A stretch of 64,000 bases of DNA from an uncultured virus (IMG/VR IMGVR_UViG_3300005782_000717) (Duplodnaviria > Heunggongvirae > Uroviricota > Caudoviricetes): the IMG/VR virus record IMGVR_UViG_3300005782_000717. One strand, given 5' to 3'. Below, one piece after another: positions 2,899-60,020 of this stretch. Within the stretch, counting starts at the first letter, position 1, and each line of letters starts with the position of its first letter. The notes under the pieces were generated by a model. That model had not been told where the DNA came from. It saw only the letters and a list, made by a program, of their open reading frames with translations, and ran no database searches. The position numbers and the translations under genes are program-made.

Positions 2899-3076
2899 CA
2901 GGCTTCTTTAGGAAAAGGCCAAACTTAAACAGCAGCTCTTGACATTCCGGGTCCAACTCTGAAGCATGCCTTATTACTCTGCTTATTAGTTCCACCTGGC
3001 TGTTTCCTTCAGCCTGCGACCCGTTTCCATTGATTTCGATACGGATGGTTGCGGTTATGGACTTAGGCTTTTTCAT
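2873..3076 (-). CDS. Small hypothetical protein downstream of the repressor
   Basis: Start overlaps the repressor 3' end; helical ELDPECQELL resembles the repressor C-terminus. Confidence 0.5.
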   Translation of the reverse strand: MKKPKSITATIRIEINGNGSQAEGNSQVELISRVIRHASELDPECQELLFKFGLFLKKPDKKADPSR

Positions 3077-3437
3077 TGGCCTTCTTCTGCTCCTTAAGGA
3101 ACTCGGCAAAACGGGCCATTAGCTTGAGCTCCGACTCATCGAGTTGCCGCATCTGGTCCAGCAGTCGAGCCATCGGCTCACTGATCTCTCCATCAGACCG
3201 GGGGCTACGAGAACCGGTAAGGACGAGTAGTTTGTCCTCCAGTGCCAGCCTCTGGTTATTCCCATTACCGAAAGCAGCAGCCAGTTTCTTTATGGTGTCT
3301 GGTGTCGCCCCGCCACCATTGATAATGTCGCGTATAGTGGCGTGGCTTAAGCCAGTCTTAGCTGCCGCCTTCCGCAACGACAGCCGCTCCCTCTGGCACA
3401 TCTCGCCTAACCACTTACCTAGGGAAACCTGCTCCAT
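3063..3437 (-). CDS. XRE/Cro-CI HTH repressor
   Basis: LSLRKAAAKTGLSHATIRDIING HTH; divergent from a second HTH gene. Confidence 0.85.
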   Translation of the reverse strand: MEQVSLGKWLGEMCQRERLSLRKAAAKTGLSHATIRDIINGGGATPDTIKKLAAAFGNGNNQRLALEDKLLVLTGSRSPRSDGEISEPMARLLDQMRQLDESELKLMARFAEFLKEQKKANEKA

Positions 3438-3450
3438 AAAATATACCTCC

Positions 3451-3592
3451 TACTTTAGTACCCCATACTTTAGTAATATTTTTTGGTACTATTTTGGTGA
3501 CATTATATCACTCCCCATTGACAAAGTAAACACCCCTGTTGACACCACTCCTGTAAGAGGCTATTGACAAATTGGCTACACTCATTTACAAT
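3451..3592 (+). promoter_or_regulatory. Lysis/lysogeny-type switch region with rightward promoter
   Basis: TTGACA(3564)-17-TACAAT(3587); extra TTGACA at 3518 and 3539; TACTTTAGTA repeated at 3451 and 3467. Confidence 0.65.
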
Positions 3593-3626
3593 TCTTTATT
3601 GCCAACCATTATTGCCGAGGTGAATT

Positions 3627-3842
3627 ATGGAACAGAAGCACCCACTATTTTTTCAGTACACGCGCGATTGGCTACACCAGGTAACAGGCTTCTCCAAGGG
3701 ATACCTAAGCCGGGTGGCTACCGGGAAGATCCCACTCAGTCGTTCCTTCATTGAACGGGTTTGCTTTAAGCTTAAACGGCCCGAGTCAGAGTTGTTCTTG
3801 CCCGATGCACCACGGTCCGATTCTTCTGGACGCGAGCATTAG
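3627..3842 (+). CDS. Cro-like HTH protein
   Basis: WLHQVTGFSKGYLSRVATG HTH, ...ELF tail. Confidence 0.75.
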   Translation: MEQKHPLFFQYTRDWLHQVTGFSKGYLSRVATGKIPLSRSFIERVCFKLKRPESELFLPDAPRSDSSGREH

Positions 3843-3880
3843 TCCGTCATCTACTAGCCTTAACCGTTTAGGGAGTAGCC

Positions 3881-4114
3881 ATGTTCACAGTGAAAAGGGT
3901 CACCACCTTTGAGTATTACTGCCCCAATGGACATACCCTGCCGGAACTAAACCAGAGCCATCGGGCAAGGTTTTGCTATACGTGTGGCCTGCGGCTTGAG
4001 GAGAGACAGGTGCCCTACGATGCTGCCTACTGTACTACTTGCCATAGCCCGGTTAACCCCGAATGGGATTATTGCCCCAACTGTGGTCAAGGGAGGGAGA
4101 ATGGAAAAAGTTAA
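3881..4114 (+). CDS. Double zinc-ribbon protein
   Basis: CPNGH, FCYTCG, CTTCH, YCPNCG. Confidence 0.7.
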   Translation: MFTVKRVTTFEYYCPNGHTLPELNQSHRARFCYTCGLRLEERQVPYDAAYCTTCHSPVNPEWDYCPNCGQGRENGKS

Positions 4115-4376
4115 GACAGAACGAGAGTTGGGCTTTAATGAGCCAGAGGTCGGCTATAAATGGGACGCCGGCAGCACTCCACCGGGAGACAAAGCACCAG
4201 GACGGTGGGCAGTAAGGAGATACCCCGACCACTGGGTGGTGCTATTCCACTCGGTTGATGGGCCTGAGTATATTATCCATGATTTTGAACCGACTGAAGA
4301 GGGGGAGAGAGCAGCCAAGATTATGGCGCTGAAGTTGGTGGATATTGCCTGGGGAAGGGAACCAAGGGAGGAATAA
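4101..4376 (+). CDS. Hypothetical protein
   Basis: RBS GGAGGGAG, ATG at 4101, coupled to the upstream gene. Confidence 0.55.
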   Translation: MEKVKTERELGFNEPEVGYKWDAGSTPPGDKAPGRWAVRRYPDHWVVLFHSVDGPEYIIHDFEPTEEGERAAKIMALKLVDIAWGREPREE

Positions 4377-4380
4377 GGTT

Positions 4381-4599
4381 ATGGAAGTTACTGTTACCGT
4401 TCAGAGCAAACAGCTGACCAAAGAGGAGCTGCGAGCCTTAATCCAGGGCATTCGTGATTCCGAGCAAAAGTCATTCCCGGATAAGGAAATCTATATCTGG
4501 ATTGACGCCCCAGAGCTGAGCAGGGTGGAGTGTGAGGAACTCCTGACCAGCATAAAACCACCCTATAAAAGTGGACCGTTTCACCTAGACCTCCGGTGA
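4381..4599 (+). CDS. Hypothetical protein
   Basis: RBS and operon spacing. Confidence 0.55.
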   Translation: MEVTVTVQSKQLTKEELRALIQGIRDSEQKSFPDKEIYIWIDAPELSRVECEELLTSIKPPYKSGPFHLDLR

Positions 4600-5149
4600 C
4601 GAAGAGGATAAAAATGAAAGGAGAATGTTGTGCGGGTCCGAGGCAAAAAGCAGGCGGTTGATATCTGGTACATTTGCTGGGGAGAGCTAGACGCTTCTTA
4701 TAATGCAGAGTTATATGCGACTTGGTTTGGGGTTCGCAGGTGGTTGACAGGTAAGGCGATGAGAGACGTTCCAATTCACCGCATCGGGTGGATAGTAATC
4801 ACGGAGGAGGGGCCAATCGAGAAGGACCACTGGTCTAGCCGAGAGGAATTTCTAAAAGCCCCCAGCTAAGAAAGCAAGAGGAAAGTTAACCAGTAAGGGG
4901 ATACTGTAGTACACACCGGTGTTGCCTGTAGAACACACCTAAGGAGGCCGGAATTGGTAAAAGAGAGGTGGTTTGTAAGACTGGATCTTATTTCCCCGAG
5001 GAAGCAGTCCATCGAATTCACCGACCTCGATAAGGAGTCTGTGAGAGCGCTAGCGCTGGGCTTTCTGGGCGCGGCATTCTGTAGCTCAGATTCTCTGTCT
5101 TTCGTCGCCTGGAAAGAGCCGGCCCGGGGAAGAAAGGGAAACCAGCCCC

Positions 5150-5278
5150 ATGAGTGAGATAGAAAAGCTGCTGGCCGAAATCGAGAAAAGGAGGCGACTG
5201 ATGTTAGGATTTGAGATTGCAATACTTCTTCTCCTCTGCTTCTTGACAGGTTTGGAAGTGTCAAGGCTGAGGTTTTAG
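5150..5278 (+). CDS. 42-aa membrane peptide (not in the ORF track)
   Basis: MSEIEKLLAEIEKRRRLMLGFEIAILLLLCFLTGLEVSRLRF*; the stop abuts the array. Confidence 0.5.
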   Translation: MSEIEKLLAEIEKRRRLMLGFEIAILLLLCFLTGLEVSRLRF

Positions 5279-5690
5279 GAAGCTAGTTCGTATAAGGTAA
5301 CAGAGAGAAGAAGGCGAGCCAGTCTCGATAAGGTAACAGATGAAGGTAGGCGAGCCAGGTTGAGGTAGGCTACAGGACACAGGAGGCGAGCCAGACGATA
5401 AGAGGTAACAGGTAGGAAAAGGCGAGCCAGTTAGCCGCAGGCAACAGATCGAAGAAGGCGAGCCAGGTAACGTTAGGCAACAGAGTACGGAAGGCGAGCC
5501 AGGTTTGGAGAGGCAACAGTTAGTCAAAGGCGAGCCAGGTGCTTTGAGGTAACAGATTGAGAAAGGCGAGCCAGGACAAGCAAGGCAACAGATCGAAGAA
5601 GGCGAGCCAGGCGATGAAAGGCAACAGAAAAACAGAGGCGAGCTAGGCATTTTAAGGTAACAGCGCATTGAAGGCGAGCCAGGACTCCGT
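5277..5690 (+). repeat. TIGR-like dual-repeat / dual-spacer array, 36-nt period, 11 full units plus a partial
   Basis: Units of AGGCGAGCCAG-N8-AGGYAACAG-N8 with exactly constant spacing. Confidence 0.85.
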
Positions 5691-5702
5691 AGAGGGAGCA
5701 GA

Positions 5703-5915
5703 ATGATAACTGATAGGATCGGGAAGAAGATAGCCAAGGTTTCAGCGAAACTCATCACCGACCGGCTGCAGTCCACCGCTTACGAGCAGGTGGTGGAGAA
5801 GTTCTGCCTGAAACGGTGCGGCCGCACCCCTGACGGCGAGCTCTGCGATGAGGCGGAGAGGGTCCACCGGCTGTTTCTTGCCCTCCTTTTTGGGGACTAT
5901 AGCGGGTCGAACTAG
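5703..5915 (+). CDS. Hypothetical protein
   Basis: RBS GAGGGAG at the array end; CxxxC...C. Confidence 0.5.
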   Translation: MITDRIGKKIAKVSAKLITDRLQSTAYEQVVEKFCLKRCGRTPDGELCDEAERVHRLFLALLFGDYSGSN

Positions 5916-5923
5916 GTGATACG

Positions 5924-6745
5924 GTGGCAGAAGAAGTAGTAGAGAAAAAATTAACCGGCCGAGAACTTGCCGAAAGCTTAGCCCGGCAGCTGCAGCTGAG
6001 TGGTTGGATGGCTTGGGTAAACATGCCCATGGGGTCGGTCCTATGGAGCAACCCAGGAATAGCCGATGTAATAGCCATTTCTAAGAGCCACAGCAACACG
6101 ACAGTTAAGGTCTATGAAGTGAAGGCCAGCCGTAATGACTTCTGGACAGACGTAAACAGGGGGAAGTACCTCAGGTACATGAAGGAATGCAACCAGTTCT
6201 ATTTCGCTGCGCCGGCAGGAATGTTGAAGAGGGGGGAGATCCCCCAGGGATGCGGGCTCATCACCCTGGGCGACCATGGCTGGCATGTCCAGATGGGCGC
6301 CCGGAGAAACGAGTGCGAGCTATCGAGGGAATTCCTGATGGCGCTGCTGATAAAGGGCCACCAGGACTATCTACTGAAGATGCGGGCGTTTAAGGACAAG
6401 GATTACTACGAATACCGGGGACTGACCGACGCCGCCGCTAAATATGGCAAGAGGCTGGCCCAGGAACTAGCCATAGGGCCAGAGTACCTTCAAGAAGCCC
6501 AGGAGCTTAGCAAGAAGGTCGGTGAAGCCTTAGGCGAAAACCACGATAGCCTCGATCTCTCGATCTGGAGTCTTCGCCAGAAGGTTTCGGAGCTTCTCAA
6601 CGAGTATAAATTCGCCGAAGAAGTAACTGAGCTCACCAGTATACTGAAGCAGCTATTCCGCGGAAACACCTATCAGGCACCCGAGGCACTCAGGGAAATA
6701 GCCAACAAACTAGAGGCAAAGCGGCAAGGAGGTGAGCATGGCTAA
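5924..6745 (+). CDS. MmcB-like PD-(D/E)XK nuclease with helical C-terminus
   Basis: IADVIAI...YEVKASRNDF..D, FYFAAP, CGLI motifs. Confidence 0.75.
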   Translation: MAEEVVEKKLTGRELAESLARQLQLSGWMAWVNMPMGSVLWSNPGIADVIAISKSHSNTTVKVYEVKASRNDFWTDVNRGKYLRYMKECNQFYFAAPAGMLKRGEIPQGCGLITLGDHGWHVQMGARRNECELSREFLMALLIKGHQDYLLKMRAFKDKDYYEYRGLTDAAAKYGKRLAQELAIGPEYLQEAQELSKKVGEALGENHDSLDLSIWSLRQKVSELLNEYKFAEEVTELTSILKQLFRGNTYQAPEALREIANKLEAKRQGGEHG

Positions 6746-7021
6746 AAGGGCGAAATGCGACAAGTGTAAAATCAAGTGGAATGTCCAGGAAAAAGACCAG
6801 ACCCCGCTTCGGGAGCTTCAATGCCCGTACTGCGGCGGGCCCGTAACACAGATATACTCTCCTTGCAGATATCCCCTAGCCAAGGGAGAGCCTATTCTCA
6901 AATAGGTGAAGGCGAAGATGGTTGAATTGAGAGTTTCTGCCTGAGCCGAGGGCTTTTCAAAATGGTGCTAGACTTTGTGCTGGTCGGCAGCAGGCTCAGG
7001 CACCATAAAGAGTAGCGGTGT

Positions 7022-7097
7022 CGCGGAGTAGAGCAGTGGTCAGCTCGTTGGCCTCATAAGCCGAAGGTCGTGGGTTCGAATCCCACCTCCGCTACCA
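7022..7097 (+). tRNA. tRNA-Met(CAT), initiator-like
   Basis: Full cloverleaf, CTCATAA loop, GTTCGAATC T-loop, encoded CCA, unpaired C1/T72. Confidence 0.9.
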
Positions 7098-7489
7098 GAG
7101 AAAGAGGAGATGGTGGAAAAGGAAGAGAGAGTAGCTAAAAGGGAGATAGTAAAGGTAGAGATAGGAAACGAGGAGTTGGCCGCTGAGATAGAGGATGGGG
7201 AAGTGGTTGGCTTCCGGCCCATCTCGATAGCTCACCTGAATAAAGACAGGCTGGGGTGTATCACCTATATCACGCTTATCGGCAACGCTATGACGAAAAC
7301 GGGGAGGTAACCATGGGTATTGAATTTAGGGTAACTGGCCACGGAATACTTCCTGGTAATCAGATGGTGGGGTGCTGCCGGCATGGGATAACAGCTGGGC
7401 GCCCGATGTTCAGTTACTCTGGTTAAGAATATACGACAAGCTTGTTTAGAGGGAAAATATGACCAGAAATATGCCACTTTGAGGGTATT

Positions 7490-7744
7490 TTGAACGTAGG
7501 AGTTTGGCAAGGGGATAAATATATGAATATACCGGATAGGCTGTACCAGATACTGCAGTTTAACGATAACCTGGCCTTCAGCATTTTAGAGCTGGTCGAC
7601 AGGATACTCGACCGCGTGTGGATCGTCAGGTATTTCAAGGTCCTGCGCGCTTTAGCTAGTCTTGAGAGAAAAGGCCTGATAGATTCAAAACACATCGGCG
7701 GGAGGAAATACTACATCTACAGGAAGGGCGAGCAGTCGAAGTGA
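7490..7744 (+). CDS. Small winged-helix-like protein
   Basis: LASLERKGLIDSKHIGGRKYY wing motif. Confidence 0.5.
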   Translation: MNVGVWQGDKYMNIPDRLYQILQFNDNLAFSILELVDRILDRVWIVRYFKVLRALASLERKGLIDSKHIGGRKYYIYRKGEQSK

Positions 7745-8703
7745 ACGACATGGAAACCCTTAAGCGGGCCTACGAGCGGGAGCACGACTCCCGCGACCGC
7801 CGGCCGCCGCATCTACGCAGCTGGGAGTATTACACCCTGGGAGCTTCCCGCAGTGACATCAAGCGCCTCCTGGACGAGGGGCTTATCACCGTCGCCCTGA
7901 AGACCTCGGCAATAACAAAGTACCGGCTGAGCGATAAGGGGCGCGACCTGGTATGGGCCTTTACTATGGAGCGTGAGTTCGCCAAGATACCGGCCGCCTC
8001 GGTGATGGAGGCCCTAGAGCTGGTTATCGGCTTTGACGACCTCAAGGAGGCCATCGCCCTGGCGGTAGAGGCCCGCCGCCGCATCAACTTCCTGCTTGAG
8101 GGGCCGCCGGCCTGTGCCAAGAGCATCATGCTGGAGGGGGTGCGCTCGGCCGTCCCCGACGCCTATATCGCCTTCGGGTCCCGCACTTCCGCCGCCGGCC
8201 TCTCCGAAGCCCTCTTCGAGCACCAGCCCTCGGTTCTGCTCCTGGACGAGGCGGACAAGATGGATAACGAAGTCTACTCGGTGCTGCTGGGGCTCATGGA
8301 GAGCGGCGAGATTCTGGAAACCAAGAGCCGCAAGACGCGTGGGGTGAAGCTCAACACGATGATTCTGGCCGCCTGCAACAGCTCGGTGAAGATGCCCGGG
8401 GAGTTCCTGTCCCGGTTCGCCCTCCACGTCCACTTCCCCACCTATTCCCGCCAAGAGTTCATCGACGTGTGCCGGGGCTTCATGGCCAAGGCCGAGGGGT
8501 GCCCCAGAGACCTGGCCGGCATCATCGGGCAGCTCATCTATGACTACGGGATAGGCGATGTCCGCAAGGCCAGGGGTGTCTGGCAGCTTATGACCGCCCC
8601 CACCGAGAGCGAGGTTCAGCGGGTCGTCCAGCTGATGCTCAAATATAGCCCAGACCACCGCCGGCTTAAAAAGCCAGCCAAGAACCGGTTGCCCGGGATT
8701 TAG
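7741..8703 (+). CDS. wHTH plus RuvB-like AAA+ ATPase
   Basis: Variant Walker A GPPACAKS, Walker B LLLDEADK, sensor N, FLSRF Arg finger. Confidence 0.8.
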   Translation: MNDMETLKRAYEREHDSRDRRPPHLRSWEYYTLGASRSDIKRLLDEGLITVALKTSAITKYRLSDKGRDLVWAFTMEREFAKIPAASVMEALELVIGFDDLKEAIALAVEARRRINFLLEGPPACAKSIMLEGVRSAVPDAYIAFGSRTSAAGLSEALFEHQPSVLLLDEADKMDNEVYSVLLGLMESGEILETKSRKTRGVKLNTMILAACNSSVKMPGEFLSRFALHVHFPTYSRQEFIDVCRGFMAKAEGCPRDLAGIIGQLIYDYGIGDVRKARGVWQLMTAPTESEVQRVVQLMLKYSPDHRRLKKPAKNRLPGI

Positions 8704-9117: not shown

Positions 9118-10287
9118 ATGACAACACAAACAAAAGCAGTCGCAACGCAGCAGAAGGCGGTCGTCAAGTGGAAAGGTGAGCAAATCATCGTCACCTTCAG
9201 TGATGTCAAAAATCTCATCTGCCCCCTGGCCACCGACCAGGAAGCCGCCGTCTTTCTCAAAACCTGCTCCTCACTGTCGTTGAACCCATTCGCTAATGAG
9301 ATTTACTTAATTAAATACTCGGAGAGGGAGAAAGCGGCCACCGTTATCTCGATTGACTCATACCTGAAGGCAGGTGAGGCAAATGACAATTTCAGCGGAT
9401 TTGAGGCTGGCATCGTCCTGAAGGACAGTGGCGGCAAGTTGGAATTCAGGGAAGGCTCATTAATCTTACCAGATGAGGCAGAGAAGTTGGTTGGAGGCTG
9501 GGCCAGGGCATACAGAAAAGATAGGGAGAAGCCATTTTATATAGCCGTCAACAAGGCAGAGTGTGTGAGGTATACCAAAGAGGGCAAACTGACTCGCTTC
9601 TGGACTAAAGAAAAGCAGCCCTCAATGCTCCGGAAGACAGCCCTGAAGCGAGCACTGGTTGAGGCATTTCCATCGCTCTTTGCTGGTACTCTGGCTACTG
9701 CCGAGGTCGGTGATGATATATCCGAAGCCGAATACGAAGAGATACCAGAAGGCACGCTCCCGCCGGCCCTGGAAAAAGGCGGTCAACCGGACTGGAAAAA
9801 GTTCTGGGCCAGGGTAAAGTCCGAGCTCGGCCTTACTACCGAGGAAGCTCGGCTACTCCTACAAGTAGACTCCATCAAAGAGGAATTGATAGACACTGGC
9901 TGGACGATGGAGAAGATATGGGACAATCTAGTGACAGCTTTAAAGCTACAGAAGGCTACCGAGGTCAAGTCTGAACGGGCTCAGGTAGTCGACGTCGAGA
10001 CAGGCGAGATTACTGCCCCGGAAGAAGACCTATTCGGAGAAGAGGAGAAAGCTGGCGTCGCCGCCCCGGCGGAAGCTGAAATAGAGCAACCGACCGGCAC
10101 GGCGGCCCCGGCTAAACCCAAGCGGGACCCGAAGTCCATCAAAACCGTGAATGACCTTCTCAAGGCTTGCAACCAGGACTTTAAGATGCAGCCCAAGCAG
10201 ATCTACGCAGAGCTTAACATCTCGGGGGTGAGGGAGATAACCGACCCAGCGGAGGCATACCAGAAAATAGCAGCGGTGAGAGGTTAG
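9118..10287 (+). CDS. RecT/Bet-family single-strand annealing protein
   Basis: LNPFANEIYLIKY, GGWARAYRKDR, W...PSMLRKTALKRALVEAFP. Confidence 0.9.
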   Translation: MTTQTKAVATQQKAVVKWKGEQIIVTFSDVKNLICPLATDQEAAVFLKTCSSLSLNPFANEIYLIKYSEREKAATVISIDSYLKAGEANDNFSGFEAGIVLKDSGGKLEFREGSLILPDEAEKLVGGWARAYRKDREKPFYIAVNKAECVRYTKEGKLTRFWTKEKQPSMLRKTALKRALVEAFPSLFAGTLATAEVGDDISEAEYEEIPEGTLPPALEKGGQPDWKKFWARVKSELGLTTEEARLLLQVDSIKEELIDTGWTMEKIWDNLVTALKLQKATEVKSERAQVVDVETGEITAPEEDLFGEEEKAGVAAPAEAEIEQPTGTAAPAKPKRDPKSIKTVNDLLKACNQDFKMQPKQIYAELNISGVREITDPAEAYQKIAAVRG

Positions 10288-10438
10288 CGCGTGGGATTCC
10301 CTGAGCAACCAATTACCAGAGAGATGAAATACGGCAAGATCCGCAGGTACAAGTGCCGCTTATGCGGGCGGACCTTCAATGACTACTATCTGCCGGAGGA
10401 GAAAAGGCTGTGTACGAGGTGCGCGAGAGAGGGTAACC

Positions 10439-11389
10439 ATGGCTAGGAGCATCACATCAGAAAGACAGGAGCTGAGGGCTGAGGCCATCCAGTTACGTAA
10501 GGCTGGGTGGAGTCAACCCGAGATTAGCAAAGCATTGGCAGTGCCACAGAAAACACTCAGCAATTGGCTAATTGTGGCTAACTCCGAGGCTAACGATACT
10601 CAGCCATTATCTATTCTGGCTAAAAACTCCAGTATCATAATTAGCCATAATAACCATCGCCCGATAGCCCTATTCCCCTGCAAGTATGAGGAAGTGGGGG
10701 ATGGTATTGCCCCTGGGAGTGTTGACTTAATCCTCACCGACCCGCCCTACTTGGCATCTTCCAGAAACCTGAGTCGCACCCTCCAGAAGACAAACCTGCG
10801 CCGCGACTACGGTAAGTGGGACAAGATACCGCCCCGTCAATATGTCCGTAATGTGGGCACCTGGGCTGGCTTGATGGCACAGCATCTCAAAGAAGGCGGG
10901 GCACTCTATTGTTTTATGGACTTGCGCCAATTATCACTGTGGTGCGATGCCCTCGAGAGAGCCGAACTTACCTATCAAAACTTTATTATCTGGCATCGTG
11001 TCAATCCAGCACCCCAGATGAGGCAGACCAAGTGGTGTCATGCCTTTGACAGTATCCTCTACTTCACTAAGGGAAGCCCCAAGACCTTCAGGTGGTTTGG
11101 CCTCAATAATATGCATAACGTGATTAAGGGACCGATTTGCCAGGGAGCCGAACGCACCTACCACCCCACACAGAAGCCCCGGTGGTTGTTGAGACGGCTG
11201 CTAATGGTCAGCAGCCGTAGTGGCGACACGATCCTTGACTCGTTTGCTGGCTCTGGAGCCACGGCTTTTGCCGGGCATAACTTTGACCATCGCAAATACA
11301 TACTTGTCGAGCCGGACCCGCAATATGCAGGGTTAATACGCGGCAGGGCGAAGGAAGAATTCGATTGGGATGTCACCGTCCATGAATGA
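10439..11389 (+). CDS. HTH-fused DNA N6A/N4C methyltransferase (beta class)
   Basis: LILTDPPY, HPTQKP, ILDSFAGSGAT; N-terminal HTH. Confidence 0.9.
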   Translation: MARSITSERQELRAEAIQLRKAGWSQPEISKALAVPQKTLSNWLIVANSEANDTQPLSILAKNSSIIISHNNHRPIALFPCKYEEVGDGIAPGSVDLILTDPPYLASSRNLSRTLQKTNLRRDYGKWDKIPPRQYVRNVGTWAGLMAQHLKEGGALYCFMDLRQLSLWCDALERAELTYQNFIIWHRVNPAPQMRQTKWCHAFDSILYFTKGSPKTFRWFGLNNMHNVIKGPICQGAERTYHPTQKPRWLLRRLLMVSSRSGDTILDSFAGSGATAFAGHNFDHRKYILVEPDPQYAGLIRGRAKEEFDWDVTVHE

Positions 11390-12767
11390 TTTACCATCAA
11401 CTATAAAATATCCAGAGGCATTCAAGGCATCACTGCCCGCTAGATATGATGGCATTTTCGATTGGTCTTTTCTGTTGCCGATTTTTGAGGGCACAAAGAT
11501 AGAACCGACGGATATTGATGGCATGGTTGAAAGGCGCGGTAAAGTATTACTTATGGAAACGAAAGGACCCGGTGTGCCAATCCCCCAGGGGCAGATTATT
11601 GCATATAAAACACTTCTAACTATTGGCAAGGGGAAGATACACTTGATGATATTTTACGGCAAAACCTCATCTACTATCGAAGGCATGGATGAGTGGTATT
11701 ACAGGGAGGGGGGAATAAAACAACAAGACTACCAAGGATGCGATTGGAATTATGTCTTTGAGAGAGTTAAAGCATGGTTTAACTGGGCAAATAGTAAACC
11801 GGGAAAGCAAAGAAAACTTGATAGCCTACACTATCGCGGAGCCAATATGAGACAAGCCGTTGCCAGGGGAGAGGAAGGTGAAATGCCCAGGGAGCAAGTA
11901 TTGGAGATATGGCAGAGGTCTGGGAGGCCGGCAATTCCTCTAAGACAGGGGGAGACCTGTCGTGACCTTGAAAAGTTTCTTTCGCATTCTAATATCAGCG
12001 ATAGTGACATTGAAGCCATTAAGGCATGGGCTCGGGAAAAGGAGGTAAAAGTGTCAAACGAAAAAGGACATTGCAAGCACGGAGAGTTTATCTTAAGGGA
12101 AGGCTGTCCACAGTGTATGGCGGAAAGGCGGCAACAAGATGATCCGGCAAACACACCTCGGCCATATCACCTGGCGGACGGCGCCATCATCCCCTCCGTC
12201 ACCACCATCCTCAGTGTCCTGGACAAGCCCGGGCTACCTCACTGGGCATGGGAATGTGGCAAGGAAGGATTAGACTACCGCGAGGTAAGAGATACCGCCG
12301 CCAGTGTCGGTACCATAGCCCATTATCTCATCGCCTGCTATCTCAAAGGCGAGACGCCCGATACTGCCGCATGTGCAACAGAGGAAGCGGCGAAGGCAAA
12401 CAACTGCCAGGCCAAATTCAAAAACTGGTTGAAGCTGCACCCCCTCAGTCCAGTGATGATAGAGACGCCCCTGATATCTGAGGAATTCAACTACGGTGGC
12501 ACCCCGGACATTCTCGCCGAGCTTGACGGCGACTTTGTCCTGATAGATTTTAAGACAGGAGGTGGAATTTACGACAGCATGTTTTACCAGCTTGCTGCCT
12601 ACTGGAAGTTGCTTGAAGAACAGGGCTGGCCGGTGGCCAGCGCCAGAATACTGAGAATCAGCGCAGATGATAGTGACTTCGAGGAGGTAGTAAAGACAAA
12701 CCTGGACGTAGAGTGGCAAATATTCCAGCGTTGCCTTGAGATATACCGGCTACAGAAGGGAGGCTAG
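11370..12767 (+). CDS. In-frame tri-partite ORF: PD-(D/E)XK-like domain, small domain, and phage PD-(D/E)XK exonuclease (probable RecT partner)
   Basis: TDIDG...METK; PSVTTIL...GTIAH...GTPD...IDFKTG...QLAAY; internal RBS plus start at 11883 and 12051. Confidence 0.75.
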   Translation: MSPSMNDLPSTIKYPEAFKASLPARYDGIFDWSFLLPIFEGTKIEPTDIDGMVERRGKVLLMETKGPGVPIPQGQIIAYKTLLTIGKGKIHLMIFYGKTSSTIEGMDEWYYREGGIKQQDYQGCDWNYVFERVKAWFNWANSKPGKQRKLDSLHYRGANMRQAVARGEEGEMPREQVLEIWQRSGRPAIPLRQGETCRDLEKFLSHSNISDSDIEAIKAWAREKEVKVSNEKGHCKHGEFILREGCPQCMAERRQQDDPANTPRPYHLADGAIIPSVTTILSVLDKPGLPHWAWECGKEGLDYREVRDTAASVGTIAHYLIACYLKGETPDTAACATEEAAKANNCQAKFKNWLKLHPLSPVMIETPLISEEFNYGGTPDILAELDGDFVLIDFKTGGGIYDSMFYQLAAYWKLLEEQGWPVASARILRISADDSDFEEVVKTNLDVEWQIFQRCLEIYRLQKGG

Positions 12768-12769
12768 AT

Positions 12770-13684
12770 TTGCCAAGAGGACGCCGGCCTCTACCCTGGA
12801 TAAAATTGTGGTTTGACACTATTGGCGACCCAAAGATGGCTCAACTATCAGCCGCAGAGAAGTGGTGCTGGGTTGGTATCCTTCTCCTCGCCGGACAGTC
12901 GCCAGTACGAGGCAAGCTGATGCTCTCCAACTCCAAGCCAATGAACGAAAATGACATTTATAGGGCGCTAAGGTTATCCCCAAAAGAACGGAAATTTTTA
13001 AAAACTTGCATTTCTAAAATGACAGATATGGATTCTCTAAAGTGGAATAATAGTTGTTTAGAGGTTATACATTTTAAGGACCGGCAAGAGGTTTTTGAGT
13101 CTGATTTGATTAATTATCATAAAAAGAAAAGCGCTGAATTAACTCCTGATAAACTCCTGAAAACTCCTGATTTAACTCCTGATTTACTGCAGAAAGAGGG
13201 AGAGGGGAGAGGGGAGAGGAAAGATACTACACCTTTATCTAAAGATAAAGGTGCCCACACCAAGCAAGCTGACCCTGTTGTTAACGAAATATTTGCCGAA
13301 ATGAGAAAGGTTTTAGGCTACAAAGAGCCGCAAGTGTGTGAACCGGGGAGCCCGACCCCTAGAGAAAAAAAAGAGGCAAAAGTGCGTGGCGGGGAGGCTT
13401 TACCCGCAATAGAAGAAAACCAAGCCATGCCGGCGGAGAGCCGTGACCCTATTCCAAACTACGGCAAGGAAGGCCAAGCTATTAAGCGAATGTTGACCCG
13501 GGGCTTTACCCGCGAGGAGATAATGGCTTGCTGGGAAAGCAAGGTATCTCAGCGTGGCGGGGAGTTTGTAAGCATGACCTGGGTTAACGAGGATATCGGC
13601 AAGAAAGGAGCTAAATCAGGTGGAACACATCGGCAAGGCGATAAAGAACCTTCCGCAGAGAGATACAGGCGGGGTCTTGAGTGA
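12770..13684 (+). CDS. Phage replication initiator (replisome-organiser-like)
   Basis: PWIKLW N-terminus, internal iterons, followed by a DnaC-like gene. Confidence 0.75.
   Translation: MPRGRRPLPWIKLWFDTIGDPKMAQLSAAEKWCWVGILLLAGQSPVRGKLMLSNSKPMNENDIYRALRLSPKERKFLKTCISKMTDMDSLKWNNSCLEVIHFKDRQEVFESDLINYHKKKSAELTPDKLLKTPDLTPDLLQKEGEGRGERKDTTPLSKDKGAHTKQADPVVNEIFAEMRKVLGYKEPQVCEPGSPTPREKKEAKVRGGEALPAIEENQAMPAESRDPIPNYGKEGQAIKRMLTRGFTREEIMACWESKVSQRGGEFVSMTWVNEDIGKKGAKSGGTHRQGDKEPSAERYRRGLE
13139..13186 (+). repeat. Iteron-like repeats (candidate origin) inside the initiator gene
   Basis: Four AACTCCTGA copies next to AT-rich sequence. Confidence 0.6.
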
Positions 13685-14381
13685 AGAGCCAGGCGAAGGT
13701 GGGCAATATACCTGTCAGATTTGCCACGATGCCCACTTTGTCCATCCCCACACGGAGGACGGCAAGGTCGACTATTCCAGGGTGGTGGTCTGCCAGTGTG
13801 TGATGGCGAAACTGGAAAGGGAGCGTATGCAAAGCATTCTCAGATACTGCGAGCTGCCCCCCGGGACCGAGCACATGACCCTGGAGAATTTCAAGGTCAG
13901 CCCCCAGCTGCAGGAGGCGTATGACTTAGCCGCTGAGCTCGCCGGTGATGCCGGCGAGATTAGATGGCTTACCCTGTCGTCCGGGGCTGACCGGGGCAAG
14001 ACCCATCTTGCGATAGGGATATGCCGGCAGTGGCTTCGGAGGGGCAAACCAGCTCGCTATGCCTTTGTCCCGCTACTCTTAGAGGAGCTAAGGAGGGGTT
14101 TTGGGGAGGAGGGGGATAGGTCCTACGAGGCCCGTTTTGACCGCTTCCTCAATGTGCCTTTACTCGTCCTGGATGACCTGGGGGCCGAATACCGGACGCC
14201 CTGGGTTCAGGAGAAGTTGGATACCATAATCGACTACAGGCTTATGCATGACCTCCGCCTGGTGGTTACCACCAATACGCCGATGGATGAATTGCCCTTC
14301 CGCATCGCCAGCCGGCTCAAGCGGTCTCCAGGCTCCAGGGTGGCGTTTATTAAGGCGCCAGAGTTCCGGAAGAAGAGGTGA
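13620..14381 (+). CDS. DnaC/IstB-like helicase loader ATPase
   Basis: CxxC...CxC Zn site, GKTHLA, LLVLDDLGAE, TTN, RIASRL. Confidence 0.9.
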   Translation: MEHIGKAIKNLPQRDTGGVLSEEPGEGGQYTCQICHDAHFVHPHTEDGKVDYSRVVVCQCVMAKLERERMQSILRYCELPPGTEHMTLENFKVSPQLQEAYDLAAELAGDAGEIRWLTLSSGADRGKTHLAIGICRQWLRRGKPARYAFVPLLLEELRRGFGEEGDRSYEARFDRFLNVPLLVLDDLGAEYRTPWVQEKLDTIIDYRLMHDLRLVVTTNTPMDELPFRIASRLKRSPGSRVAFIKAPEFRKKR

Positions 14382-15344: not shown

Positions 15345-15983
15345 ATGTGGAAAAAGTATGAGGTCGAGCAGCAGATGACAGGCAGGTTTGCGGCAGCCCT
15401 TCCCAAGGCCAAAGAGGCCATTGAGCAAATGCTGGAGCACCGGATGCCAGCCACCCTGCCGGAGAACTTTACCCCCATAGCTGAACTCACCGAGGAAGTT
15501 GCCGAAAAGGTAGGCGCCCCTGCTGAGGGTGAAGAGGAGGAGGAGGAGCTCAAATATGGCTGGGCTACCTTCCCCCGGAATGAAGAAGGTCTCTACTACG
15601 AGGGGCGCTGTATCCGAGGTCACATTAAGGACTGCGCCAACCAGGTAAAGGATGCCATCGAACCTCCAGTAAAGGCCCTAAAAGCCAAGGTGGCCAACAA
15701 GGTCTATGTGATGACCGATGTTATCCCTCTTGGCGCCAAGGAGATAGGGGGGACAGAACAACGCTTCGTGCAGGTCATGACCCCTAAGGGTCCTAGGTCA
15801 ACCATCAAGTATGTTGACTACTTGGAAAAGCCCACGCTGAAGTTTCGGCTAAACGTGCTTGATGACGGCATCATTACCAGGGAAATTCTCGATGCCATCT
15901 TTGAGTACGGCAGTGTTCATGGTCTCGGCCAGGAAAGAAGTCAAGGATGGGGGCGATACACGTTCATAATCACTGAGCTTTGA
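15345..15983 (+). CDS. Stand-alone Cas7/RAMP-like protein (partner of the TG-NNN array)
   Basis: C-terminal G-rich loop GLGQERSQGWGRY, IRGHIKD helix, RRM-like strand pattern; its TGA stop is the start of the first array repeat. Confidence 0.75.
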   Translation: MWKKYEVEQQMTGRFAAALPKAKEAIEQMLEHRMPATLPENFTPIAELTEEVAEKVGAPAEGEEEEEELKYGWATFPRNEEGLYYEGRCIRGHIKDCANQVKDAIEPPVKALKAKVANKVYVMTDVIPLGAKEIGGTEQRFVQVMTPKGPRSTIKYVDYLEKPTLKFRLNVLDDGIITREILDAIFEYGSVHGLGQERSQGWGRYTFIITEL

Positions 15984-16580
15984 AGCCGAGTACTGAAAAT
16001 GATGTGAGATGGCGTGCTTTGGGCTGAAGCCGAGGGGGGCGATGGCGTGAATTGTATTGCCGTGACTTGAAGCCGAGATGTGAGTTGACATGTACTGAAA
16101 TGGACTGAAGCCGAGGAATGCCGTGAAATGGTTTGGTGTGGTCTGAATTGTGGTGAAGCCGAGTGCTGCACTGGGTTGCACTGTATTGGGTTGGGTTGGA
16201 ACGAAGCCGAGACCTGCCTTGAGATGGGATTGGATGGAATGCCGTGAAGCCGAGACATGAGCTGTAGTGCAACGGGATGACTTGAAGCCGAGGGCTGTGG
16301 TGTTTTGTTCTAGCCTGACGTGCCGTGAAGCCGAGCCGTGAGATGGGCTGCTGTGGGGTGTGGTGAAGCCGAGAAATGGTGTGCCGTGTTTTGCCTTGTA
16401 TTGTTGTGGGTTGGAGCCGAGGACGGTGGTGATTTGCTGGGGACTGAAGGGGGTTGAAGCCGAGATGTGGACTGGCTTGCGGTGGAGTGGCTTGAGGTGC
16501 CATGGAGCCGAGGTGTGAAGTGACGTGAAGTGATTTGCGACTGAAATGAGAATTGGCGTGATAGGGGGTGCGATGTTCTG
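15981..16580 (+). repeat. Repeat-spacer array: 13 x TGAAGCCGAG (variants CGAAGCCGAG, TGGAGCCGAG) with NNN(TG-NNN)n spacers
   Basis: Repeats at 15981, 16025, 16068, 16106, 16154, 16202, 16245, 16283, 16326, 16364, 16412, 16455, 16503. Confidence 0.9.
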
Positions 16581-16734: not shown

Positions 16735-17397
16735 ATGGATAAAGTGAAGTCAGCAGCAATAGAGGCCATAGAAGACACAGGTTTTTGGTCAGAATATATT
16801 CTCAAAATGCTTATAGAGGGCATAACTCCATTTTTGCAGAATAGCCCCAAAAATATGAAAGCAAAGGAACCAGGAATTAAAAGAGAAAAAACCTATGACC
16901 CAGAGATAGAAGCAGAAAAAGTTACCTATCGTCGAGATGACGGCACTTTGGGCTTCCCGGCGGATGCAGTGAGAAAATGTTTGATAGGCGGTGCTACTGG
17001 GCTAAAGATTGGAAACAGGTTTGCCTCAACGGTGCTGCCTGAGATTATCGGCCACTTCCCGCCGCTTGAAGGCGACGAGCTTTTTCCGTTTGAGACCTTG
17101 GAAGGAGAACCCATCAGCGATTATGAAATAGATACCAGGCGTGCAGTTAGAGGGCGACAGGGAGTTCTTGTTAGCAGGCCAAAGATTTGGCCATGGCGGT
17201 TGCGCTGCACCTTGAAACTGACAGTACCTGTTGGCACTGATATGGATGGTTTAAGAAGTGACCTTCTTCGGATAGCTAACAAGGCAGGGCAATATCCCGG
17301 TTTGGGCGATGGCCGCCCCCAGAAGATTAAGGGGAAGGGGCTCTGGTTTGGTAAGTCTAGGGTAGTTGAGCTGGAGATAGAGCCTCTGGAGGAGTAG
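16735..17397 (+). CDS. Vipr-like RAMP (Cas7-related) protein
   Basis: IEGITPFLQN, Y...DGTLGFP, RRAVR...SRPKIWPW, AG..PGLGDGRP...FGK G-loop; flanked by GGY-NN tracts. Confidence 0.8.
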   Translation: MDKVKSAAIEAIEDTGFWSEYILKMLIEGITPFLQNSPKNMKAKEPGIKREKTYDPEIEAEKVTYRRDDGTLGFPADAVRKCLIGGATGLKIGNRFASTVLPEIIGHFPPLEGDELFPFETLEGEPISDYEIDTRRAVRGRQGVLVSRPKIWPWRLRCTLKLTVPVGTDMDGLRSDLLRIANKAGQYPGLGDGRPQKIKGKGLWFGKSRVVELEIEPLEE

Positions 17398-17658: not shown

Positions 17659-18336
17659 ATGAAAGAGACAGCACAAAAGGTGAAAATAACGAAGCTGCTA
17701 TTAGACTACAACCTTTATCCCAGGGAGCAAATTCAATCATTTCATGTCAGGCAGATGGTTGAGGCATTGGAGGCTGGAACTATTTTGCCGCCTATCATTG
17801 TTGATAGGAAGAGCAAGCGGGTGGTAGACGGCTTTCACCGAGTACGGGCACACCGGAAGCTATATGGCAAGGACGCTGAGGTTTCCGCTATTTTTAGGAC
17901 TTATGAGGGCGAGACGCAGATGTTTATAGAGGCTATAGCTCTCAATGCTACACACGGCAGAAATTTGACTCCCTACGACCGGGCTAGATGTCTAGCTCGG
18001 GCCGAAGAGCTCAAGATGGACCCAGCGGTTGTGGCGAAGGCATTGAACATGACCGTCGAGACCCTGGGCAGGCTTAAAACAGAGCGTCTGGGGTACTTCC
18101 ATACAAAGCCGATAGTGCTCAAGCGAACCACCGCCCACCTGGCTGGCGAGGAATTGACTGAGGAGCAGTTCGCCTATAACCGGCAGGCCGGCGGCATGCA
18201 GTCAACCTTCTATATTAAGCAGATTATTGGCATGCTGGAGGCGGAGGCTATTGATTGGGAAGACGAGAAGGTGGTTAAAGCCCTGAAGCATTTGCATCAG
18301 CTATTAGATGAGGCAATGAAGCCTATCGGAGTGTAG
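17659..18336 (+). CDS. ParB/Srx N-terminal domain protein
   Basis: YPR, LPPIIVD...VVDGFHRVRA, NATHGRNL. Confidence 0.85.
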   Translation: MKETAQKVKITKLLLDYNLYPREQIQSFHVRQMVEALEAGTILPPIIVDRKSKRVVDGFHRVRAHRKLYGKDAEVSAIFRTYEGETQMFIEAIALNATHGRNLTPYDRARCLARAEELKMDPAVVAKALNMTVETLGRLKTERLGYFHTKPIVLKRTTAHLAGEELTEEQFAYNRQAGGMQSTFYIKQIIGMLEAEAIDWEDEKVVKALKHLHQLLDEAMKPIGV

Positions 18337-40510: not shown

Positions 40511-40638
40511 CTCTGGAATAACGGAGGCGGGTAGCCCCAAGATTACTCCAGGGTTGCTACCCGCCCCTTGTATCTATATAATGTAATAAGTTTTCGCTTT
40601 TGTCAAGTCCTCCTTACAGGCAGGATTATCGGTGGCGG
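40511..40638 (-). promoter_or_regulatory. Promoter plus structured leader, copy 1 of a 128-bp duplication
   Basis: TTGACA-17-CATTAT, then GGGGCGGGTAGC...GCTACCCGCC hairpin; near-identical to 59893-60020. Confidence 0.7.
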
Positions 40639-53080: not shown

Positions 53081-53326
53081 ATGAGGCAAAGGGAGTGGCG
53101 CCCTTACAAAGCATCGAAAAGAGAAGTTTTATCTTTCTTGGAGGAAAGAGAGGTTGTCACCATTCATAGCCTCATGGACAGATTCGGTTATTCATACTAC
53201 GGAGCGAGAAATAGACTGCGGGGGCTTTATCGGGAAGGGTTGATTCAACCCCTTTTTGAGAGAGGCACCTGGGGATTAACTAAAAAGGGAGAAAGGAGGT
53301 TAATGCACTATGAGCAAGGAAAATGA
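53081..53326 (+). CDS. Winged-helix protein
   Basis: RLRGLYREGLI...WGLTKKG. Confidence 0.65.
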   Translation: MRQREWRPYKASKREVLSFLEEREVVTIHSLMDRFGYSYYGARNRLRGLYREGLIQPLFERGTWGLTKKGERRLMHYEQGK

Positions 53327-54788
53327 AAAGACTGAAGTCCCTATTGTCCAGGAGGAATTCGCCAATTTCCTGAGAAAGTATAAAGTAGTCAAGGGCGGTG
53401 AGATGTGCGACACCATCGCTGAGAACATCGCTGAAACTGGCGGGGCGGACGTTTTTGAGACCCCCGAGGCGTTAGCCAAGGGACTAGGAACTTGGTCAGA
53501 ATACATTGGCGCGCCGCTGAGAAAGCAAATTCTGCAGCACTGGTTTGCCAAGAAGCGCATAGAGGTACCCCCGGAGGCAATAGAGATGGCCGGGTTAACG
53601 GCCAAGACAGAGGCGACAATGAAAAATAAGAAGGAAGTAGATAAGAAGAAAGCCGAGGGAGCGCTGTGGACGATTGACATTGATGACAGCGGGACGCCCA
53701 GAATTCGGATGATAAAGGACGCGGCGGAACCCGGGGTCACCCTGGCCGAGGCTAAAGCCGCCGCCAGGGAAATAGGCAAAGAGCGCGAGGAGCCGATTGT
53801 CGTCTATAACGAGGAACTGAGCAGGCACATGCCGAACTTCAAGTCCTCCTTTGTCAAACAGAACCTGAGTGCTGCCTGGGCAACGGCCAGACAGATGGAT
53901 AGGGCAATAGCTGAGGGCGAACCCATCGACCCCATGGATGTTTGGATTGAGCAGCAAGCAAAGATGGCGCAGTTCAGGGAAGTGATGGGCCCAACTCCTG
54001 ATACCAAAGGAGCGGGAACCATGGGCGAGATTGTAACTGCACTAAAGGACCTCAAGGAAATGGCGGACGAGGGGAAGGTCAGCGGGGTGCCAGAATGGAT
54101 GACTGACCCGATTGAGTTCATCAACACTGTCAAAACTATCACAACTCCTGAGGCCAAAGGAGCGGGAACCATGGGCGAGATTGTAACTGCCCTAAAAGAC
54201 CTCAAGGAAATGGCGGACGAGGGGAAGGTCAGCGGGGTGCCAGAATGGATGACTGACCCGATGAAGTTTCTTGAGACTGTCCGTGGACTCTCCGGAGGAG
54301 GTGAGGGCAAGGGCTCTCCTGACTGGATGACAGACCCGGCCAAGTTCATCGAAACGGTGGAGAGGATCTCAGGCGGCGGCAAGGGGGACGAAGCACTCAA
54401 GCAACAGGTGGCCAGTCTGGAAAAGATCCTCACCGATATGAGAGAGGACAGGTACAAGGAACAGATAGATAGCCAGAAACAGCAAATGGGGGTGTTAACG
54501 ACTAAGGTCGTGGAACTCACCGACCGAATAGCTGATATCGGCAAGACGGCTATCGGGCGAACCGAGATGGACATTATCCACGAGCTTGCCACTGAAGGCC
54601 TAGGGGTTCTCAAGACCGAGCTGCCCGGCTTTAGGAGAGATGTAAAAGAGGCAATAGGCAGCACAGTACTTCCCCCGGGCAAGAGTGCCGAGGAGCGAAA
54701 AGAGAGAACGACAAATTTGAGGCAGGCAGTTGAAAGGGACAAGAACATAGAAGAGATAGGGCGCCGGCTGTTCTTCAGCGAAGGTTGA
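53310..54788 (+). CDS. Helical/coiled-coil protein with a recent 50-aa tandem duplication
   Basis: 54004-54112 repeated at 54154-54262; third (P/D)WMTDP motif. Confidence 0.75.
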   Translation: MSKENEKTEVPIVQEEFANFLRKYKVVKGGEMCDTIAENIAETGGADVFETPEALAKGLGTWSEYIGAPLRKQILQHWFAKKRIEVPPEAIEMAGLTAKTEATMKNKKEVDKKKAEGALWTIDIDDSGTPRIRMIKDAAEPGVTLAEAKAAAREIGKEREEPIVVYNEELSRHMPNFKSSFVKQNLSAAWATARQMDRAIAEGEPIDPMDVWIEQQAKMAQFREVMGPTPDTKGAGTMGEIVTALKDLKEMADEGKVSGVPEWMTDPIEFINTVKTITTPEAKGAGTMGEIVTALKDLKEMADEGKVSGVPEWMTDPMKFLETVRGLSGGGEGKGSPDWMTDPAKFIETVERISGGGKGDEALKQQVASLEKILTDMREDRYKEQIDSQKQQMGVLTTKVVELTDRIADIGKTAIGRTEMDIIHELATEGLGVLKTELPGFRRDVKEAIGSTVLPPGKSAEERKERTTNLRQAVERDKNIEEIGRRLFFSEG

Positions 54789-59892: not shown

Positions 59893-60020
59893 CTCTGGAA
59901 TAAAAGGGGCGGGTAGCCCCGAGATTACTCCAGGGTTGCTACCCGCCCCTTGTCTTTATATAATGTGATAAGTTTTCGCCTTTGTCAAGTCCTCCTTACA
60001 GGCAGGATTATCGGTGGCGG
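59893..60020 (-). promoter_or_regulatory. Promoter plus structured leader, copy 2
   Basis: Near-identical to 40511-40638. Confidence 0.7.

Follow-up and report, generated by a model that had tools for sequence, protein, structure and literature searches.

Can an array of TIGR guides be maintained by a virus that carries no gene for the matching effector protein, Tas? This question is raised by a DNA stretch of 64,000 nt from an uncultured virus of the Caudoviricetes (IMG/VR record IMGVR_UViG_3300005782_000717; the whole 64-kb stretch is hereafter called the window), in which a dual-repeat TIGR array of 11 guide units was found at 5277..5682 on the + strand and no tas gene was found. An earlier note, made from the sequence alone, had pointed to this region as an orphan TIGR-like array. 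The comparisons described below indicate that intact arrays persist without a neighbouring effector at this locus and in its relatives, that such arrays occur frequently in one family of sediment viruses, and that the window array probably works with a Tas supplied from a distance.

The array and the search for tas in the window

The consensus unit consists of an 11-nt edge repeat (AGGCGAGCCAG), an 8-nt spacer A, a 9-nt loop repeat (AGGYAACAG) and an 8-nt spacer B, and the period is exactly 36 nt. Ten full units start at 5312 + 36*i. They are preceded by a unit whose edge (5277..5286, + strand; AGGAAGCTAG) is degenerate, shortened by 1 nt to 10 nt, and begins at the stop codon of o42, a 42-codon open reading frame (ORF). 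The last full edge lies at 5672-5682 and is followed by a terminal degenerate pseudo-unit (GACTCCGT AGAGGGAGCAG A; 5683..5702, + strand), within which GAGGGAG forms a Shine-Dalgarno-like sequence for the start codon of the 70-codon gene o70 (ATG at 5703). Deviations from the consensus were seen in the edge at 5636 (C>T) and in the loop at 5367 (AGGCTACAG). The 11 spacer pairs listed in the earlier note were all present as written, including the use of ATCGAAGA as spacer B in two units (5420 and 5564), and the 36-nt period claimed there was exact over 11 units in pattern scans and in Tandem Repeats Finder, which gave periods of 36, 72 and 108. The pattern AGGCGAGCCAG-N8-AGGYAACAG with up to two mismatches had 10 matches in the window as compared to 0.00 expected from 100 shuffles, and CAG-N8-AGGYAACAG-N8-AGG with up to one mismatch had 11 as compared to 0.02 expected. 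Edges with up to one mismatch occurred 12 times in the window, 11 times in the array and once as a stray match at 51506, and no second array was seen in the 64 kb by this edge scan. Contigs from two possible source runs matched window 3000-8000 without differences, which does not amount to independent evidence.

In the part of the text of Faure et al. (PMC12045711) on which we draw here and below, a dual-repeat TIGR array consists of alternating edge and loop repeats of 8-12 nt with two short spacers and gives a 36-nt tigRNA; the box D motif at the start and the box C motif at the end are common to edge and loop and covary between arrays, typical arrays have 5-15 units, and the motif letters of TasR are UG...CCA. 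The window array shows this organisation, with two distinct short repeats, two short spacers, tandem 36-nt units, and the motifs AGG at the start and CAG at the end of both edge and loop. When hypothetical 36-mers were cut in mid-edge, a 5' GCC paired with a 3' GGC in 8 of 10 and the predicted energies were weak, which fits the compact repeats described for TIGR.

Two features that had seemed unusual in the earlier note turned out to be ordinary or nearly so. As for the 8-nt spacers, 16 variable nt are described for SpTIGR of the Salicola phage (Faure et al., PMC12045711), and this reference array, read from the phage record NC_020844, has the unit AAGCGAGCCA-N8-AAGACAACCA-N8 directly behind the gene for the 309-aa TasH. 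As for the supposedly non-canonical flanking motifs, viral contigs were scanned for two GCGAGCCAG words 36 nt apart, and at least 122 stretches were obtained. Among the matches listed, many were 36-nt arrays of the form NAG/NTG-CGAGCCA-N8-NAG/NTG-(A-rich)-CCA-N8, and the start dinucleotide was equal in edge and loop in 41 of the 47 distinct viral arrays with the core GCGAGCCA, as required by the covariation rule of the published TIGR family. Judged by its sequence, the window array is a genuine variant of this widespread 'GCGAGCCA-edge' type with AGG...CAG in place of NAG/NTG...CCA; the variation is mild, the motif is identical in edge and loop in accordance with the family rule, and an edge of 11 nt with a loop of 9 nt keeps the unit at 36 nt. 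The exact window repeat had no match in the viral contig collection. The reading as a TIGR dual-spacer array is supported by the unit architecture and the 8-nt edge core common to SpTIGR, and by bona fide Tas genes that adjoin the same repeats elsewhere, as described in the next section.

The earlier statement that the 64 kb hold no Nop-domain gene was borne out by three Tas hidden Markov models (HMMs), Pfam and NCBIfam. The HMMs, which represented TasH, 47 diverse array-linked Tas proteins and the cognate clade introduced below, found no Tas among 1198 six-frame stop-to-stop ORFs of at least 30 aa in the window (best E values of 0.52, 0.67 and 0.38 for the three). Neither Nop nor Transposase_20 was found in 107 ORFs by Pfam at E <= 0.01, a search in which SpTasH as a control matched Transposase_20 at 2.5e-5; NF052498 was not found in 117 ORFs by NCBIfam, and SpTasH gave nothing below E 0.9 against the window in tblastn and phmmer. 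The profiles detected Tas at E 1e-138 to 1e-6 in the retrieved loci and, among the matches listed, at 26 of the 30 viral arrays with at least 3 kb on both sides; three of the four misses had poor or non-TIGR consensus units, and the fourth, L024, looks like a real array.

A tas remnant beside the array was not found either. Matches of the cognate Tas to the window in tblastn were confined to the translated array, which argues against such a remnant, and reading of the three frames of 3880-5290 for a broken or recoded tas gave only unrelated small ORFs, the ORFs upstream of the array (3881-5278) being small and unrelated to tas. PDB sequence searches with an MmcB-like protein encoded downstream of o70 and two other unexplained window proteins returned no Tas or Nop. 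The window, in short, lacks a complete TIGR-Tas system in the sense of a tas gene beside the array.

The same repeats in other genomes

Metagenome contigs scanned for exact copies of AGGCGAGCCAG-N8-AGGNAACAG gave at least 134 stretches, and genome contigs gave 14. A nonredundant set of 138 loci among the matches listed was the basis of the locus, Tas and spacer counts given below. Four or more edges in register were present in 66 of these loci, two or three in 40, and a single edge in 32, some of which are probably chance matches; the longest metagenome arrays had up to 38 edges. The profile built from diverse array-linked proteins detected 24 Tas ORFs at E <= 0.01, located on the array strand and within tens of bases of the array, and BLAST clustering placed Tas fragments in 30 of the 138 loci. 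The arrays sit upstream, downstream or on both sides of tas, and the orientation of the window array matches that of the Tas-linked arrays and of the SpTIGR reference.

The cognate Tas proteins (alignment A2; e.g. L143:393-1223, L139:4984-5847 and L132:412-1302, with others) are ca. 290 aa long and consist of an N-terminal helical, coiled-coil-like segment, two CxxC...CxxC zinc ribbons and a C-terminal Nop-type part. By this last part, the proteins match the solved structures of TasR (9MTY, E 3.7e-24) and TasH (3.6e-7), and one member reached 142 bits on the NCBIfam model NF052498 'TIGR-Tas system RNA-guided endonuclease' (cut-off 100). Pfam found zinc-ribbon families only in the cognate Tas, and neither HNH nor RuvC. 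Inspection of the neighbours of the same repeats in other genomes, a check proposed in the earlier note, thus brought out adjoining Tas ORFs: the repeat sequences of the window are physically linked to Tas genes in metagenome loci, so that a Zn-ribbon Tas lacking a nuclease domain is the kind of partner known for this repeat type. No relatives of the cognate Tas or of o70 were found in the viral contig collection.

Several further features of these Tas loci were observed. The Tas members of L154, L188 and L173 carry additional Zn-ribbon inserts inside the Nop-like part, and the 3' ends of some Zn-ribbon tas genes read into the first array units. At L206:290-583, the tas gene stops after ca. 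25 conserved N-terminal codons and runs into an inverted array, a disruption of tas by array rearrangement. The proteins encoded between paired arrays (L155, L166, L138, L184, L248 and L206) were mutually unrelated.

Among the matches listed, 12 arrays had two or more edges and flanks of at least 1.2 kb on either side. Tas was present in 3 of them and absent from 9 (L129, L142, L144, L148, L152, L164, L177, L200 and L264), and none of the nine appeared in the BLAST Tas cluster. Besides, mini-arrays of one or two units without Tas in the locus were found in L129, L144, L164, L185, L156, L134, L264 and L265. The arrays of L142, L148 and L190 end in a truncated edge and a hairpin terminator, with promoter-like sequence upstream in L142, and L134 likewise ends in a hairpin terminator. 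When ORFs at up to 1.5 kb from these arrays were clustered, no other recurrent effector-like family was obtained. On these counts, Tas-less arrays are common in this virus family.

Some of the mini-arrays were also seen to adjoin integrase genes or to end in hairpin terminators, and two lie in contigs of Dehalococcoidia metagenome-assembled genomes (MAGs). Three MAGs contain such units. The first has a canonical Tas with an array, the second has Tas on a contig other than that of the mini-array, both lying at contig ends, and in the third no Tas was found. In 401 sampled genomes of the class of the mini-array-bearing MAG G001, the array pattern was found in G001 alone.

Several metagenome loci share genes with the window (RecT at 66% identity, integrase at 54-62%, exonuclease and DnaC-like loader), and the neighbourhood of the array is shared by four loci. 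L147 has the order helix-turn-helix (HTH) gene, Zn-ribbon gene, array and o70; L172 has o42, array and o70; L140 has array and o70; and L242 has Tas (C-terminal part), array and o70, so that o42 of the window occupies the position of tas in L242. In L147, L172 and L140, the array and o70 occur together with no Tas between the flanking genes, and this recurrence of the layout suggests that the Tas-less state is not an accident of the window's contig. The array ends of L172, L140 and L242 resemble that of the window (..ACTC.. GGAGG.. start codon). The flanks of the relatives show 69-82% DNA identity to those of the window. The repeats of L147 (6 edges, 5 loops) and L140 (4 edges, 3 loops) nevertheless had no mismatch, and those of L172 had one. 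In the window, mismatches amounted to 1 of 121 nt in edges and 1 of 80 nt in loops, as compared to 31 of 2167 nt and 19 of 1424 nt, respectively, in 17 Tas-linked arrays; the arrays were chained by edges with up to two mismatches, and decayed ends were trimmed in all groups alike. Diverged flanks with intact repeats in Tas-less loci fit purifying selection on the repeats.

The spacers, on the other hand, differ among the arrays of the window, L147, L172, L140 and L242 with one exception: the window pair GTTGAGGT/GACACAGG is near-identical to GTTGTGGT/GACACAGG of L147, whose spacer A GTTGTGGT is also present in L242. This exception shows common descent.

Explanations for an array without tas

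Since the array is intact and no tas was found in the 64 kb, it was considered most likely that the array works with a Tas supplied from a distance, encoded either beyond the window in the same genome or by a related element that is co-resident or co-infecting. The following course of events was hypothesised. The array would be transcribed with the early operon in which it lies. A Tas of the Zn-ribbon/Nop clade would bind the precursor and cut it in mid-edge, giving eleven 36-nt tigRNAs, as may be expected from the published TIGR biochemistry: Tas is required for tigRNA processing (Faure et al., PMC12045711), and in the dual-repeat TasH a Tyr/His loop performs pre-tigRNA processing according to the part of the preprint of Xu et al. 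(10.64898/2026.09.09.750476) used here and below. Spacers A and B of each tigRNA would base-pair with different strands of the target DNA, as in the published work.

Several points weigh against the supply of Tas from a distance. The orphan status holds for the window only, that is, for 5.2 kb upstream and 58 kb downstream of the array, and most comparison contigs are short (1-10 kb), so that Tas-less status there is local. No Tas was found in G001, a MAG that may be incomplete. Typical arrays have a truncated edge at the 5' end and a truncated edge with a terminator at the 3' end (Faure et al., PMC12045711); in the window, the 5' edge is degenerate and shortened, and at the 3' end a full edge and the pseudo-unit run straight into o70, and no terminator was found. 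No RNA sequencing run was listed as containing the locus. For none of the window's 11 spacer pairs did the window itself or the 1.6 Mb of related loci contain a composite match (up to one mismatch in 16). Finally, a very recent loss of Tas or a recent transfer of the array could also account for perfect repeats.

The spacers of the family as a whole were then compared with possible targets. The spacer set comprised 749 units from 108 sources (the window and 107 loci, among the matches listed), with 671 distinct pairs. TIGR cleavage leaves 3' overhangs, and gaps of 1 and 2 bp, but none larger, are tolerated (Faure et al., PMC12045711). From the 3'-overhang pattern, we derived that a target should read spacer B, gap and reverse complement of spacer A on one strand. 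The 671 pairs were searched with up to one mismatch against 0.51 Mb of array-masked sequence, with shuffled A-B pairings as the control. At gap 0, the window gave 4 near-matches as compared to 1.14 expected (reached by 8 of 300 shuffles) and the related loci gave 3 as compared to 5.25; at gap 1, these values were 5 as compared to 1.14 (3 of 300) and 14 as compared to 5.5 (1 of 300); at gap 2, they were 1 as compared to 1.1 and 11 as compared to 5.9 (13 of 300). No excess was seen at gap 3 in the window or the related loci, and unrelated genomic loci gave no near-match excess. Summed over gaps 0-2 and over the window and the family, 38 near-matches were observed as compared to 20.0 expected, while the other layout gave 14 as compared to 19.3, in a test that was exploratory, covered eight layout/gap combinations and had its expected layout derived after the first excess appeared. 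The single exact match was that of L130 spacers in L172. The ten near-matches in the window are scattered, and one, from the Tas-linked L242, covers the start codon of the methyltransferase gene. These results provide a lead, not a demonstration, that guides of the family may aim at related elements.

A broader hypothesis, which we put forward tentatively and regard as possible but rather doubtful, is that of guide-only TIGR loci. A family of marine-sediment viruses would keep Tas-less arrays and one-unit mini-arrays under selection and load their guides onto the Tas of co-infecting or co-resident relatives, so as to bind, silence or destabilise those relatives, as a TIGR equivalent of the mini-CRISPR arrays found in viruses; in its own lineage, the window array would, in addition, couple the presence of Tas to early-mRNA processing ahead of o70.

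It is unlikely that the array is a recently orphaned remnant, in which tas was lost and replaced by the small ORFs o67 and o42 and the array is a non-functional passenger that has not yet decayed. Tas stands exactly at the place of o42 in L242, the truncated tas of L206 indicates that rearrangements of this sort occur, and the lack of detectable targets for the window's spacers in the window and the 1.6 Mb would agree with a passenger. However, three relatives have the Tas-less layout together with flanks diverged by 18-31%, repeats that are perfect or nearly so, and different spacers; the recurrence of the layout, together with clean repeats and spacer turnover, argues against neutral decay. 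Moreover, the repeats of the window are no less clean than the repeats in Tas-linked arrays.

Two further roles were given a lower probability and appear quite improbable: a decoy, in which the array RNA acts as an anti-TIGR that soaks up the Tas of competing related viruses, and a switch, in which Tas-dependent cleavage and occlusion of the early mRNA changes the expression of o70 and the replication genes behind it. Both would be compatible with the position of the array within the operon and of the ribosome-binding site of o70 in the terminal pseudo-repeat, which are kept in 4 other contigs, and with the part that dual-repeat Tas reportedly has in pre-tigRNA processing, being needed for it and, in the case of TasH, performing it. 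A CRISPR analogue of the decoy exists in the RNA anti-CRISPRs made of solitary repeats (described in the part of PMC10651486 consulted). A decoy, however, needs the repeats only, whereas 671 distinct pairs in 749 units and spacer turnover between close relatives are expected of working guides. Neither the decoy nor the switch had direct support.

The possibility that a different, non-Nop effector is encoded in the window received very little credence. The candidates would be o70, the MmcB-like protein (5924-6745) and a ParB-like protein (17659-18336). For o70, its position behind such arrays in 5 loci could be cited, but a length of 70 aa would not suffice for the dimer platform of a Nop-type protein. 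None of the related loci encodes a homologue of the MmcB-like protein, and its PDB search matched neither Tas nor Nop. parB-like genes do occur in operons with tasA (Faure et al., PMC12045711), and a homologue of the window gene at 16735-17397 follows Tas and an array in L141; the ParB-like gene, however, lies 12 kb away from the array, and the published tasParB accompanies TasA, as far as described, and does not replace it. Identical repeats elsewhere go with canonical Tas, and clustering of the neighbours of Tas-less arrays yielded no recurrent candidate.

The refuting case raised in the earlier note, a translated 12-aa-repeat protein, has practically no chance of being correct: a 171-codon frame on the C/T-rich minus strand (5261..5776) is open across the whole array, but it has no Pfam or NCBIfam match, the variation of the array falls in 8-nt blocks and not in codon positions, and among 35 distinct uninterrupted arrays of the same type with at least six full units each (among the matches listed), all six frames contain stops in 24, and the frame of the window is open in just 5. 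The array itself contains 5-8 stops in each + frame and 3-4 in the other two minus frames. The open frame is spurious and is explained by C-poor spacers, the C content of the 749 units being 12.1% in spacer A and 11.1% in spacer B.

Genomic setting and comparison with known systems

The window DNA occurs in marine-sediment metagenome runs and has the appearance of a temperate virus, a provirus or a mobile element related to these. The array lies inside a + strand early/replication operon, in a region with genes for a tyrosine integrase (1336-2334, - strand), an HTH protein (3627-3842, +), a Zn-ribbon protein (3881-4114, +), an MCM-like ATPase (7741-8703), RecT (9118-10287), a DNA methyltransferase (10379-11389), an exonuclease (11370-12767) and a DnaC-like loader (13620-14381). 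The minus strand encodes laminin-G and CARDB proteins, for which a structural role is probable. The best sigma-70-like promoter match, TTGACA-17-TACAAT (11 of 12; 3564..3592, +), lies ahead of the HTH gene, and an uninterrupted run of + strand ORFs (HTH, Zn-ribbon, small ORFs) leads from it into the array. We infer that this site is the source of the array transcript; promoter-like sites in the scan were no more numerous than in shuffles.

Directly upstream of the array, o42 (5150..5278, +) encodes a product with a hydrophobic C-terminal half and shows 85% identity to its L172 counterpart over 27 aa. Directly behind the array, o70 (5703..5915, +) has conserved Cys35, Cys39, Cys48 and His55; it also follows such arrays in 4 other contigs among the matches listed, one of them Tas-linked, and it had no match in Pfam, PHROG, NCBIfam or Atlas. 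The next gene, for the MmcB-like protein, encodes a member of the PD-(D/E)xK type. Rfam detected only tRNA and a SAM riboswitch in the window. The virus-borne tRNA-Met lies at 7022-7097, and stretches 77-81% identical to window 7008-7099 directly adjoin TIGR units in L174, L196, L182 and L153. The SAM riboswitch (RF00162, 53.5 bits, above the gathering score; 62830-62936, - strand) is located in the mobile-element-like right end.

Other observations concern the remainder of the window. Between the genes at 15345-15983 and 16735-17397, a G/T-rich stretch of 750 nt without a + strand ORF contains ca. 14 copies of GAAGCCGAG (15980-16530) at irregular spacings of 38-50 nt. Lacking both a fixed period and a second repeat, the stretch is no TIGR array, and it may be an origin of the iteron type. 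A 35-nt motif (..GCTGGCTGAGATAAAGAAACTGGAGG..) occurs in five copies (14513, 14775, 15299, 16579 and 18541) just upstream of successive + strand genes and may be a shared regulatory or ribosome-binding leader. The 220-aa phrog_4652 protein encoded at 16735-17397, beside the ParB-like gene, has its homologue at L141:157-681 (30% identity, E 1e-14), directly downstream of Tas and the array. A 684-aa protein (54847-56901) is interrupted by an intein with a LAGLIDADG domain, and L163 has a homologue of 61% identity in the vicinity of a ParA/Mrp-like gene and a TIGR unit. A 128-nt direct repeat (94% identity; 40511-40638 and 59893-60020, 19.4 kb apart) brackets SDR, type III PKS, UbiA, Mrp-like and intein genes and may mark an insertion or duplication. 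A 150-nt tandem duplication (92-95% identity; 53992-54281) lies inside the ORF 53310-54788.

The first description of TIGR-Tas dates from 2025, and its role in nature and its targets are given as open in the text of Faure et al. (PMC12045711). TIGRFinder searched around tas loci only (Xu et al., 10.64898/2026.09.09.750476); since such surveys start from a tas gene, stand-alone arrays fall outside their search. The word 'orphan' is absent from the main texts of Faure et al., Xu et al. and 10.64898/2026.08.11.744272, the word 'zinc' is absent from the main texts of the first two, and a full-text literature search for orphan TIGR arrays returned nothing relevant. The kind of array is, thus, known. 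What lies outside the published descriptions examined is an intact and apparently selected Tas-less array within an operon and, likewise, the large share of arrays and mini-arrays without Tas in a single family of viruses. If this is true, TIGR guides and effectors would be heritable separately, and related viruses would be a testable class of natural targets. The Tas clade with Zn ribbons in place of the nuclease domain and its guide repeats form a ready-made experimental pair.

The closest known system is SpTIGR-TasH of the Salicola phage CGphi29 (NC_020844; PMC12045711; PMC13421893), which shares with the window array the 36-nt unit, the 8+8-nt spacers, the 8-nt edge core GCGAGCCA, an A-rich loop repeat and the location in a phage or virus. 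The repeats of SpTIGR, however, are 10+10 nt and end in CCA, whereas those of the window are 11+9 nt and end in CAG; the SpTIGR array lies immediately behind tasH and has a hairpin terminator at its end, whereas the window array has neither a tas gene nor a terminator; and TasH has an HNH domain, in place of which the Tas clade of the window's repeats has two Zn ribbons. A second relative is the dual-repeat TIGR-TasA, whose nuclease-less Tas proteins are RNA-guided repressors (Xu et al. 2026 preprint, 10.64898/2026.09.09.750476). The cognate Tas resembles it in lacking HNH and RuvC domains by Pfam while having the Nop-type C-terminal part that matches 9MTY, and in the variable placement of the array around tas, which the preprint also describes; it differs in the coiled-coil-like segment and the two zinc ribbons, with extra ribbon inserts in some members. 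As a working analogy for guide arrays in viruses, the mini-CRISPR arrays of inter-viral conflicts can be considered (PMC6858448, as far as its text was available): they are also viral guide arrays without effector genes that use the effectors of another genome, but they belong to CRISPR-Cas and have documented targets, whereas the TIGR arrays described here show a statistical excess of near-matches only.

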